From a virus (taxonomy: Duplodnaviria > Heunggongvirae > Uroviricota > Caudoviricetes), in the IMG/VR virus record IMGVR_UViG_2721755660_000001: 64,000 nucleotides of DNA. One strand, 5' to 3'. Made by a program: the position numbers. This document shows positions 36,001 through 39,000 of this stretch, one piece after another. Position 1 is the first letter of the stretch. Every line of letters starts with the position of its first letter.

Positions 36001-39000
36001 GCTGGAAATGGACAGGTACGTTGAGCGTGAACCATCAGGATCACAGGCCAGTCAGTTTGCCGGACGTGCGGGAAATTGAAAGCGCGAGTTTTTACTGTAG
36101 AATAGCTGCGGGTGCTTGAGGCTGTCTGCCTCGGGCATGCAGCCGTAAGGCAGACAGAGAAAAGCCCCAGTTAACATTACGCGTCTTGCAGGACGCTTAA
36201 CATTAATCTGAGGCCAAATCTATGACTTACAAACTTAGGTTAGCCTCTTACGTGCCGAAAGGCAAGGAGAAGTAGGCTATGAAGCAGCAAAAGGCGATGT
36301 TAATCGCCCTGATCGTCATCTGTATTACCGTCGTAGTGATAGCACTGGTAACGAGGAAAGACTTCTGCGAGGTACGAATCCGAACCGGCCAGACGGAGGT
36401 CGCTGTCTTCGTAGACTACGAATCTGAGAAGTAAGAGACCAGGCAGGGGAGTAATCTCCCGCCACCTCTGATGTGTCTGGCATCCTCAACGCACCCGTAC
36501 TTTATTTGTCATATGCTCCGCAAAATGCAGGTTGTCGTTGCAACCAATGCGGTAATTTTTTGTGTGCGAGTGCTCAAAAAACGTTGATTTTCATAAAAGG
36601 ATGATTTTATGCTGCCAGACCAGCGACCAGCGACCAGCGACCAGCGACCAGCGACCAGCGACCAGCGACCAGCGACCAGCGACCAGCGACAGCGACCAGC
36701 GACCAGCGACCAGCGACCAGCGACCAGCGACCAGCGACCAGCGACCAGCGACCAGCGACCAGCGACCAGCGACCAGCGACCAGCGACCAGCGACCAGCGA
36801 CCAGCGACCAGCGACCAGCGACCAGCGACCAGCGACCAGCGACCAGCGACCAGCGACCAGCGACCAGCGACCAGCGACCAGCGACCAGCGACCAGCGACC
36901 AGCGACCAGCGACCAGCGACCAGCGACCAGCGACCAGCGACCAGCGACCAGCGACCAGCGACCAGCGACCAGCGACCAGCGACCAGCGACCAGCGACCAG
37001 CGACCAGCGACCAGCGACCAGCGACCAGCGACCAGCGACCAGCGACCAGCGACCAGCGACCAGCGACCAGCGACCAGCGACCAGCGACCAGCGACCAGCG
37101 ACCAGCGACCAGCGACCAGCGACCAGCAGTAAATCAAGAAAGTCTGTAAAATCTGTTGAGCCGGAAATTACCGAACTGGCGAACTCATGGCTTAAATCTT
37201 ACAGGCTTGATTACAAGTTGCAGAATGCATCACTTAACGGAGAGATCGATAACGCACTGGACGCTTATTTTTCGAAAAATGGCGGCGCAGGCGGTAATCG
37301 TCCCGACGTAAAACTCCTTGTTAAGGACAAATACGGCAAGCAGTATCCCGTTCTCATCGAGTATAAAGGCTACAAGGACAGGCTTATCAGACTTGGCAGC
37401 AACGGTATTATTGAGAACAAAGATGCCAGAAAAGAATGGAATTTTAAAAATATTAATGGATACGCGGTGAATGGCGCAGTCCATTATGCCAACGCACTTC
37501 TTCAGTTCACCAATTACCCTGATATTATTGCTATTGGTATGACCGGCTGGCGCGATGATGGTACAGGCGAACTGCATCATGAAATCGGCGTGTGGTACGT
37601 ATCAAAGAATAATTTAGGAGCCGGACAGAAGGTTGGTGAATTCACCGACTTATCGTTCCTTGCTGACAAAAATGTTGATGGATTTCTCAACAAGATAAAG
37701 CTGCTTAATCTTCCTCCCGAAGAACTGGAAAAAATCAAGGCCAGCAAAGAGGAAGAGATAGACACGCGACTTTCCCGTCTGAATAACGATATTTACCAGA
37801 ATGAAAAGGGGCTTGGTGAAAGCGATCGTGTTTACCTTGTTGTGGCTACCGTTATTGCAACGTTGGGGATTCCGGGAAAGTTAGCACCGCTGGATAAAAA
37901 AGAACTGACCTCTTCAACGGAGGAGGACTTGCGTGATGGTGATATTATTTTCAGGAAAATAAGGAATTTTTTAAGGCTGAAAGCTGTTCCTGAAACAAAA
38001 AGAGAAATGATTTTGCGCTCGTTGCAAAATACGCTGTGGACTGAAAACATTAACAAACCAGTCAACGGTGAAAGCCAGTTAAAGCGCGTGTTTGTTAAAG
38101 TTGTTGATGATCTTGGGGAGTATTACAAAATTGGACTGACCACCGATTTTACGGGCAAACTGTTTAATGAGATGTATCGCTGGCTTGGATTTACGCAGGA
38201 CAAGCTCAATGACGTCGTTCTGACACCACCTTATGTTGCCACATTGCTGGCACGACTCGCCAGAGTAAACAAAGATTCCTATGTGTGGGATTTTGCTACA
38301 GGTTCTGCGGGATTGCTTGTGGCTGCAATGAATGAAATGCTCATTGACGCCAGAGAAAATATTCACTCACCGAACGAACTACAACTTAAGGAAGCGCAAA
38401 TCAAGGCTGAACAGCTTCTTGGCCTTGAGGTGTTATCCAGTATTTATATGCTGGCCATCCTGAATATGATTTTGATGGGGGATGGTAGCTCGAATATCCT
38501 CAATAAAGACTCGCTGGCCGATTTTGACGGCAAGTATGGATTTGGGAAAACAGGAGAAAAATTCCCTGCGGACGCATTTATTCTCAATCCTCCGTATTCA
38601 GCTAAAGGTAACGGCATGATTTTCGTGCAGAAGGCGCTGTCGATGATGGATAAAGGCTATGCTGCAGTGATTATCCAGAGTTCAGCTGGCACAGGAAAGG
38701 CTACGGAGTACAACAAAAAAATACTCAAGGAAAATACCTTGCTGGCAAGCATCAAAATGCCTGCGGATCTGTTTATTGGTAAATCAAGCGTTCAGACGTA
38801 CATTTACGTTTTTCAGGTAAAAATTCCGCATAACGCGAAACAGGCTGTTAAGTTTATCGACTTTTCCAATGACGGCTACGCTCGCTCTAATCGCAAAAAG
38901 GCAAGAAACAATCTTGTTGATGCCGATCGTGCAAAAGAGCGTTATCAGGAGGTTGTGGATCTGGTTCACTTCGGGAAAGGTTGCCTTAATATCTTTACGG

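Follow-up and report, generated by a model that had tools for sequence, protein, structure and literature searches.

What does a tandem array of more than seventy copies of a seven-nucleotide unit do at the beginning of a gene? The question is raised by the Caudoviricetes record IMGVR_UViG_2721755660_000001, of which we analysed a stretch of 64,000 nucleotides (hereafter the window), and in which copies of CAGCGAC precede the conserved part of a restriction-modification (RM) gene. A sequence-only reading of this DNA had proposed that the array is a phase-variation switch, and copy-number polymorphism, the existence of three frame states, the position of the tract within the gene and purifying selection on the enzyme support that proposal. 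Comparative sequence analysis makes it very probable that the array works as a contingency switch by strand slippage, and that it does so within the coding sequence for the nuclease-methylase of a BcgI-like Type IIB RM system carried by a prophage.

Tandem Repeats Finder delimits the array at positions 36618-37127 of the window (period 7, 73.0 copies, 99% matches, score 1013), close to the 72 or so copies claimed previously; 71 copies are perfect. Read in the CAGCGAC register, ten perfect units starting at 36621 are followed by a 6-nt AGCGAC (36691-36696), by 61 perfect units ending at 37123 and by a final CAGCA. With 510 nt of near-perfect repetition, chance origin is not an issue. The tract contains 215 C, 144 A, 144 G and no T, and can thus hold neither a stop nor a start codon in any forward frame, while its three forward frames are cyclic permutations of QRPATSD: the same heptapeptide without a stop in every frame, just as the sequence-only reading had stated. 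That reading had also taken the 6-nt unit as proof of past slippage or indel events. The unit is present, also in the source record CP015228, but it proves little: since imperfect units are rare (6 of the 29 loci described below, namely the window and five fetched loci) and one of them is plainly artefactual (an obvious poly-C run in L027), it may not be a real indel but a mistake in the long-read consensus. Should the unit truly be 7 nt long, the enzyme of the window would be in frame with the first of two start codons (ATG 36601) and not with the second (ATG 36609).

Does the tract lie within the gene or in front of it? Repeat-less homologues begin at the equivalent of ATG 36609 (MLPNQRPTNKSRK...) and keep the residues encoded directly after the tract. 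In one of these, the prophage homologue P0015 (locus L053), a strong GGAGG precedes ATG CTG CCA AAT CAG CGA CCA ACA AAT AAA (MLPNQRPTNK): the start reads MLPNQRPTNKSRKVVKSVEPEIADLGNGW, with a single copy of CAGCGAC among the native N-terminal codons. The conserved segment S(I/V)EPxIAxLANGWLKSY, encoded in the window directly 3' of the tract, is preceded by 5-13 residues in the homologues from Neisseria and Providencia (72-73% identity, 679-686 residues). Because the repeat-less homologues start where they do, the one in L053 with a single CAGCGAC, the tract lies within the gene; by the same comparison ATG 36609 (MLPD...) is the ancestral start and the tract an expansion of one native unit. The placement of the tract inside the 5' end of an RM gene is thereby borne out.

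RefSeq sees the locus differently. PGAP begins the enzyme at TTG 37218 in 28 of 28 annotated genomes, ignoring the tract, and in most of them the protein is WP_001178557.1. Were this the true start, the tract could be a hypervariable but neutral microsatellite, part of a leader or of some dispensable region, and expression of the enzyme would be independent of copy number; the uniform distribution of frame states reported below is what a neutral repeat would be expected to give as well. However, the annotated start removes about 30 conserved N-terminal residues (SVEPEITELANSWLKSYRLDYK), of which L17, N19, W21, L22 and S24 are invariant in homologues down to 72% identity, and those homologues begin just before this segment. 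Moreover, the interval between tract and segment contains no start codon, TTG 37218 is not preceded by a good Shine-Dalgarno sequence, and the repeat-less relative uses the equivalent of ATG 36609 with its strong ribosome-binding site. A neutral repeat ahead of the gene is thus improbable, and a tract translated as part of the enzyme is the reading that we follow.

Two ATGs in different frames and 8 nt apart were said to stand behind one ribosome-binding site; their frames and their distance are as stated. For the present assembly it also holds that ATG 36609 reads into the enzyme (an 856-codon open reading frame (ORF) ending at 39179) and that ATG 36601 gives a repeat-only peptide (182 codons, stop TAA 37147-37149); the third frame is blocked by TGA 36602-36604 and ends at TAA 37130-37132. 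Equal use of the two starts, however, is unlikely: since the Shine-Dalgarno sequence AAGGA overlaps ATG 36601 and yet is well spaced for ATG 36609 (7 nt), the state that depends on ATG 36601 is probably the weaker. ATG 36601 is found in 27 of the 29 fetched loci, across both deep tract-bearing lineages. It is lacking in the repeat-less relative, and lacking too in the Type III gene discussed below, which reads GGAAAT instead of GGATGAT.

The comparison of repeat counts among related genomes, which the sequence-only reading had named as a check, gave a wide spread. Of 5,426 complete Escherichia coli genomes, 30 contain the full gene by megablast, as does phage PhiR12_3; the phage locus and 28 chromosomal ones were fetched (one of the 28, L002, is the window's own record), making 29 distinct loci with the window. 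The tracts contain 16, 30, 30, 49, 53, 55, 55, 57, 63, 63, 64, 64, 65, 71, 75, 76, 78, 80, 81, 82 (four loci), 88, 88, 91, 93, 98 and 120 units. Among these are 13 loci with 0 substitutions in 250 nt upstream and 2,060 nt downstream of the tract (2,310 bases) that nevertheless have ten different counts, from 30 to 98 (30, 55, 57, 63, 64, 71, 75, 78, 82 in three loci, 91 and 98): G1/2, G6/7 and G8, for example, carry 91, 82 and 98 units, and three O111:H8 strains carry 57, 55 and 82. Because counts differ where flanks are identical, tract length, on this sample, evolves orders of magnitude faster than point substitution. The purity of the tract, despite a synonymous divergence (dS) of about 1.5 between lineages, argues for ongoing slippage together with long maintenance.

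Four loci (L001, L005, L007 and L009, from the ECOR13 phage, G6/7, O111:H8 7-32 9A and UCPROB-002) have exactly 82 units each, an out-of-frame length. Counts from IMG/VR (8-33 units) come from short-read contigs, many of them broken at the tract, and were kept out of the frame statistics: short reads collapse the CAGCGAC tract (PMC5909438). The tract breaks short-read assemblies, many IMG/VR contigs ending inside it. A contig with a Salmonella enterica homologue (AAZHXV010000139; L055 1-42) opens exactly at the 3' edge of the tract (ACCAGCAAATTAAG...), and the tract probably exists in Salmonella too.

The frame state of each locus follows from L, the number of nucleotides that separate CCAGAC from GTAAATC. 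Eight loci have the enzyme in frame with ATG 36609 and nine with ATG 36601, and in twelve neither start is in frame with it; this does not depart from one third each (chi-square p = 0.64). In all 29 loci the frame after the tract is open for 681-682 codons, and between two tract-bearing lineages with dS of about 1.5 the ratio of nonsynonymous to synonymous substitution rates (dN/dS) is 0.056, indicating strong purifying selection on the enzyme. Because the frame is open everywhere and dN/dS is about 0.05 while many alleles are off, the pattern – a gene maintained and yet often out of frame – is, at the level of sequence, the signature of a contingency locus. Three features that mark slipped-strand loci are present: a tandem repeat, with a unit not divisible by three, downstream of the start and within the coding sequence; counts that differ among close strains while the flanks stay constant; and natural in-frame and out-of-frame alleles with the downstream gene intact.

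We propose that replication slippage adds or removes 7-nt units and that each unit would shift the frame of the downstream enzyme by one. At L = 1 mod 3, translation from ATG 36609, the ancestral and well-placed start, would run into the enzyme (on). At L = 2 mod 3 the start whose frame would lead there is ATG 36601, overlapping the Shine-Dalgarno sequence (probably low). At L = 0 mod 3, because of TGA 36602 and a tract free of T, the enzyme would have no start in its frame, and translation would yield nothing but repeat peptides that stop at 37130 or 37147 (off). The locus would thus behave as a cyclic three-state switch: on, probably low and off. In the on states some 40-280 residues of (QRPATSD)n would form a tail at the N-terminus of the enzyme. 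The S (specificity) subunit encoded downstream appears to depend on ribosomes coming from the A gene, and the off state would then probably silence the whole system. The rate of slippage, how strong the two starts are relative to each other, and what follows for restriction, methylation and the biology of the phage are inferences from the sequences. A precedent for three states is lic1 (licA) of Haemophilus influenzae, where two ATGs in different frames stand ahead of a CAAT tract and expression can be strong, weak or off; the unit, the gene (lipopolysaccharide phosphorylcholine) and the organism differ.

Four points weigh against such a switch. A consensus scan of the interval between the hok gene and the ATGs found no convincing sigma-70 promoter. 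The counts rest on assemblies, which may collapse heterogeneity within populations and may miscount long tracts. The four loci at 82 units are apparently unrelated, more of a coincidence than a spread of 16-120 predicts. And the annotated TTG 37218, if used, could yield a truncated enzyme whatever the length of the tract.

Reliance on assemblies also admits the idea that the prophage is a decaying or mis-assembled remnant, with an artefactual repeat or an inactive system. Some assemblies do contain artefacts in the tract (L027 its poly-C run, five others units that are 6 nt long or otherwise odd), some strains have a shortened S gene or one with IS1 behind it, and RefSeq treats part of S as a pseudogene in the window's own genome. 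Yet the tract occurs with the same flanks in 29 independent complete records and in many IMG/VR contigs, the enzyme frame is intact in every record with dN/dS of about 0.05, and the S frame of the window is open and matches phrog_12160 end to end. That the repeat is an artefact or the system dead is therefore very improbable, more so than the neutral repeat considered above.

A prophage precedent in E. coli for the proposed switch is neuO of CUS-3, where a heptanucleotide repeat in the 5' coding region varies between 3 and 53 copies in complete genomes, 65.6% of which are off (PMC13001214). Like our locus, neuO – described as a 'mobile contingency locus' in E. coli K1 (Deszo 2005) – is a prophage cargo gene whose 5' heptanucleotide repeat is translated as an N-terminal tail, is in frame in one length class and varies widely in count; unlike it, neuO has the unit AAGACTC, encodes a capsule O-acetyltransferase, uses a single start codon and shows no sequence relationship. 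The neuO precedent suggests a different role for the tract, in which its length mainly tunes the enzyme, the (QRPATSD)n tail modulating assembly or activity of the nuclease relative to methylation. A longer repeat is reported to give neuO higher catalytic activity (PMC13001214), the tracts here reach 120 units (840 nt), far beyond what frame switching needs, and the tail would be translated in two of the three states, next to the PD...EYK domain. Expansion-biased slippage alone can make long tracts, however, and off alleles are no rarer than those of either on state, so that the variable on view is frame and not length. Tuning as the main role strikes us as unlikely, though it is the strongest competitor of the frame switch.

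Which enzyme is being switched? The post-tract part of the ORF (683 residues) matches Pfam N6_Mtase (E 1e-20) and, weakly at its N-terminus, VRR_NUC (PD-(D/E)XK); the PADLOC profile REase_MTase_IIG matches along the whole length (E 3e-232), and a second profile of that class, with 637 positions, at E 1e-44. The motifs RPD (from 37299), EYK (37359-37367), DFATGSAG (38289-38312) and NPPY (38586-38597) are present, and RPD...IEYK and NPPY are invariant among homologues. An AlphaFold model from a shallow alignment is of low confidence (mean pLDDT 54.5); the top folds that Foldseek returns for it, HsdM proteins and the Type IIB enzyme BsaXI, lend weak support to this identification, and PDB chains searched with the enzyme sequence or a 14-sequence profile gave nothing at E <= 1. 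The downstream ORF (to 40333) contains Pfam Methylase_S in two stretches and matches PADLOC Specificity_II; between hok and the next phage genes there are only the A and S genes, and no HsdR.

BcgI has its nuclease residue, Glu53, in a PD...EXK motif of subunit A, and its subunit B is HsdS-like (PMC3592470). The same combination characterises Type IIB systems and is found in the window: a PD...(D/E)XK nuclease (its fold seen in the low-confidence model only) and a gamma-class N6-adenine methylase (NPPY) in one A subunit, an HsdS-like S with two target-recognition regions, and no HsdR. PADLOC profiles of matching length hit both proteins. By these sequence features the gene encodes A, the nuclease-methylase of a Type IIB system resembling BcgI, with cleavage predicted; two-sided cleavage of a bipartite site is here a prediction, and, unlike our gene, BcgI and BsaXI have no described repeat tract or phase variation. 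The sequence-only reading had spoken of the architecture of phase-variable mod genes: the architecture stands, but the gene is a fused nuclease-methylase and not a Type III mod, its product being HsdM-like (PF02384) with a separate S gene, which sets it apart from Type III mod phasevarions.

A further question concerns the expression of S. We compared the A/S junction in eight lineages (the window, two further E. coli types, Salmonella, a repeat-less prophage, Providencia, Neisseria and a metagenomic relative; the loci besides the window being L029, L020, L053, L055, L176, L178 and L180). In all eight, S lies in the -1 frame of A, and this frame stays open past the stop codon of A. A canonical, correctly phased slippery heptamer stands 0-1 codons before that stop in seven of the eight (G_GGA_AAG in the window, A_AAA_AAG in four lineages, G_GGA_AAA in one), and all eight have a 13-bp hairpin about 5 nt downstream (-23.3 kcal/mol and z = -6.0 in the window; z between -2.4 and -4.6 in the others). 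No canonical start precedes the conserved N-terminus of S (SVEWGEFRIGDLF) in the window-type and L020-type E. coli, Salmonella, Providencia and L053 lineages. When S is read from 39176, Methylase_S scores 86.7 bits from profile position 2, as against 71.4 bits from position 24 when it is read from TTG 39239, and the PADLOC profile likewise aligns from its own position 2.

Heptamer phase, a spacer of 5-9 nt, a downstream structure and a -1 ORF without a start are what is expected of a programmed -1 frameshift site, and all are seen. The simplest reading is that a programmed -1 frameshift likely makes an A-S fusion (1,069 residues plus tail; predicted junction ...NNFAGK-VNSPLSDKLRSVEW) beside free A. 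A fusion together with free A fits the assemblies of BcgI (A2B) and BsaXI ((RM)2S) (PMC3592470, PMC11997821), and, if the frameshift is real, the tract controls S as well as A. The literature searched contains no report of such a frameshift.

S itself varies. Its alleles differ among strains (several RefSeq protein ids), some being shortened or followed by IS1, and its central region, between the recognition halves, contains 2.2 copies of a 24-nt unit (IEELEAAH IEELEAYL; 39656-39707). In Type IC enzymes the copy number of such a central repeat changes spacer length.

The repeat unit has been seen before. Atack et al. (2018) described a CAGCGAC[n] tract in the Type III mod gene M.Eco131I (GCC(m6A)TC) of E. 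coli strains that make Shiga toxin (STEC), with fragment analysis revealing mixed lengths inside cultures of three of these strains (PMC5909438). The published mod primers are not found in the window or in IMG/VR; BLAST with both primers joined located the mod gene on eight mobilisable plasmids of 92-117 kb, with inferred counts of about 11-38 units. On pOkiPb01677_2 (L181, 5991-6440) 35 units stand ahead of a Type III mod and a helicase-type res, with MobA, relaxase and TrbC nearby. That the gene in the window is the published STEC mod gene is ruled out: downstream sequence, Pfam family and replicon all differ.

Upstream, by contrast, the two loci are alike. They share the identical unit in the same register, a homologous leader of about 45 nt (as an alignment of the window with L181, L029 and L053 shows), the start codon and the first four codons (ATGCTGCCAGAC): ...TTGATTTTTATTGAGGGAAATTTTTATGCTGCCAGAC(CAGCGAC)35 in L181 corresponds to ...TTGATTTTCATAAAAGGATGATTTTATGCTGCCAGAC(CAGCGAC)n in the window (36521-36634), and in the STEC gene too copy number varies. 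Beyond the tract they are unrelated, the STEC locus continuing into a Type III Mod (TELIRELNSVLRGFPLFW...) and helicase-type Res; the STEC gene is borne on a plasmid rather than a prophage, has a single ATG before the tract and has shorter tracts. Because a single-copy CAGCGAC progenitor is known only in the Type IIB family, the module of leader, start and tract most likely arose in that family, to be transplanted onto the Type III gene. We tentatively extend this to a fuller scheme, whose chances fall somewhat short of even: a portable hypermutable cassette would have grown from one native CAGCGAC (MLPNQRPT) and moved to a plasmid-borne Type III mod; the prophage copy would have gained a second start and with it three states; and the -1 frameshift, making an A-S fusion beside free A, could set a 2:1 subunit ratio, with one tract controlling every subunit.

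A search of 5.8 billion proteins with the bare repeat peptide returned short low-complexity proteins only and no other tract-bearing gene families. A scan of species-representative genomes for five units gave, among the matches listed, a Planctomycetota metagenome-assembled genome and Marichromatium; none of the matches listed is enteric. In these two (L056-L135) five or more copies of CAGCGAC occur on at least dozens of contigs (assembly JALHRW01) and on several contigs (Marichromatium bheemlicum), and there the array is a dispersed microsatellite.

How much of this is new? Cj0031 of Campylobacter jejuni switches by a homopolymeric G tract, is chromosomal rather than phage-borne, and is a single chain without a separate S gene. 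It resembles our gene in that Cj0031 / CjeNIII-type Type IIG enzymes are reported to be fused nuclease-methylases switched by a repeat within the coding sequence (PMC4889913). A survey of Type I repeats (PMC7383803) mentions neither Escherichia nor 7-nt units, and a literature search found no paper on a Type IIB tract locus. The kind of switch is known, the CAGCGAC unit is already published for another E. coli gene, and the slipped-strand architecture is not unprecedented; what is new is the class to which the enzyme belongs, its setting in a prophage, the cassette of leader and tract that is shared, and the second start codon.

The prophage location assumed earlier is confirmed by the neighbours: the RM system is cargo of a lambdoid prophage, 3' of NinG, NinH, Q and a hok-type toxin and 5' of the lysis genes, and the repeat-less relatives L053 and L178 occupy the same slot. 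Just past the terminator-like hairpin that follows S, RefSeq records a truncated 'site-specific DNA-methyltransferase' fragment (from 40635 of the window; L002 5696-5761), possibly the remnant of an earlier cargo gene in this slot. The coordinates of all features are collected below.

Features of the RM locus and its surroundings (positions in the window; all on the + strand)
Feature	Position	Basis
Q antiterminator gene of the lambdoid prophage	35570..36079	PHROG phrog_79 E 1e-46; RefSeq annotation
Promoter-like site TTGAAA-16-TAGAAT	36076-36103	promoter scan
hok/mok-type toxin gene, directly upstream	36279..36434	phrog_251 E 2e-31; RefSeq 'Hok/Gef family protein'
Leader: imperfect 17-nt duplication, Shine-Dalgarno AAGGA 36597-36601, ATG1 36601-36603, ATG2 36609-36611, then CTGCCAGAC	36574..36620	sequence; Tandem Repeats Finder row 36574-36608; alignment with L181, L029, L053
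RM (A) subunit ORF, 856 codons in this assembly: repeat tail, PD...EYK, S-adenosylmethionine-binding motif, NPPY	36609..39179	Pfam, PADLOC, motifs, invariant columns
Heptanucleotide tract, 73 copies (71 perfect CAGCGAC), encoding (QRPATSD)n in every frame	36618..37127	sequence, Tandem Repeats Finder
Lone 6-nt unit AGCGAC, sets the present frame; possibly an assembly error	36691..36696	sequence, locus comparison
Stop codons closing both non-enzyme frames just 3' of the tract: TAA 37130-37132, TAA 37147-37149	37130..37149	sequence, ORF calls
TTG taken as start by RefSeq/PGAP (653-aa WP_001178557.1)	37218..37220	annotation; homologue N-termini
Candidate -1 frameshift signal: slippery G_GGA_AAG 39170-39176, A stop TAA 39177-39179, 13-bp hairpin 39182-39220	39170..39220	sequence, folding
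Specificity (S/B) frame, -1 relative to A; first canonical starts TTG 39239, GTG 39248	39176..40333	Pfam Methylase_S, PADLOC Specificity_II
Terminator-like hairpin and T-run after the S gene	40399..40418	hairpin scan

Over the tract, RefSeq places a reverse-strand 'YXWGXW repeat-containing protein' or 'hypothetical protein' (36607-37137, minus strand), and in the window's genome it splits the open S frame (39221-40333) into a pseudogene and a short coding sequence. Between a truncated start, a bogus reverse-strand protein and an S gene that is split or truncated, no genome examined has this locus annotated correctly.

Two other repeats occur in the window. A perfect 9-nt unit (GCTGCACTG) is present eight times at 18283-18354, encoding (VQP)8 in a 135-codon minus-strand ORF (18140-18547); being in frame, it can change protein length only. 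At 56480-57076 there are 2.5 copies of a 243-nt unit (98% identity), within which periods of 18 nt and 9 nt are nested and GGN codons are abundant; this is probably a collagen-like repeat of a tail-fibre gene.

Escherichia coli is usually thought to be sparing with repeat-driven contingency genes; this locus is a clear added case, and one that is borne by a temperate phage. If the switch operates as proposed, then a population of lysogens would be a mixture of restricting and non-restricting cells, and the phage released from it a mixture of methylated and unmethylated particles, with a bearing on phage host range, superinfection immunity and gene flow in enteropathogenic E. coli (EPEC), STEC and commensal strains. 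Should the candidate frameshift prove real, it would be a novel means of setting the stoichiometry of restriction-enzyme subunits. The leader-tract module common to Type IIB and Type III genes suggests, moreover, that the switches themselves move between defence genes.

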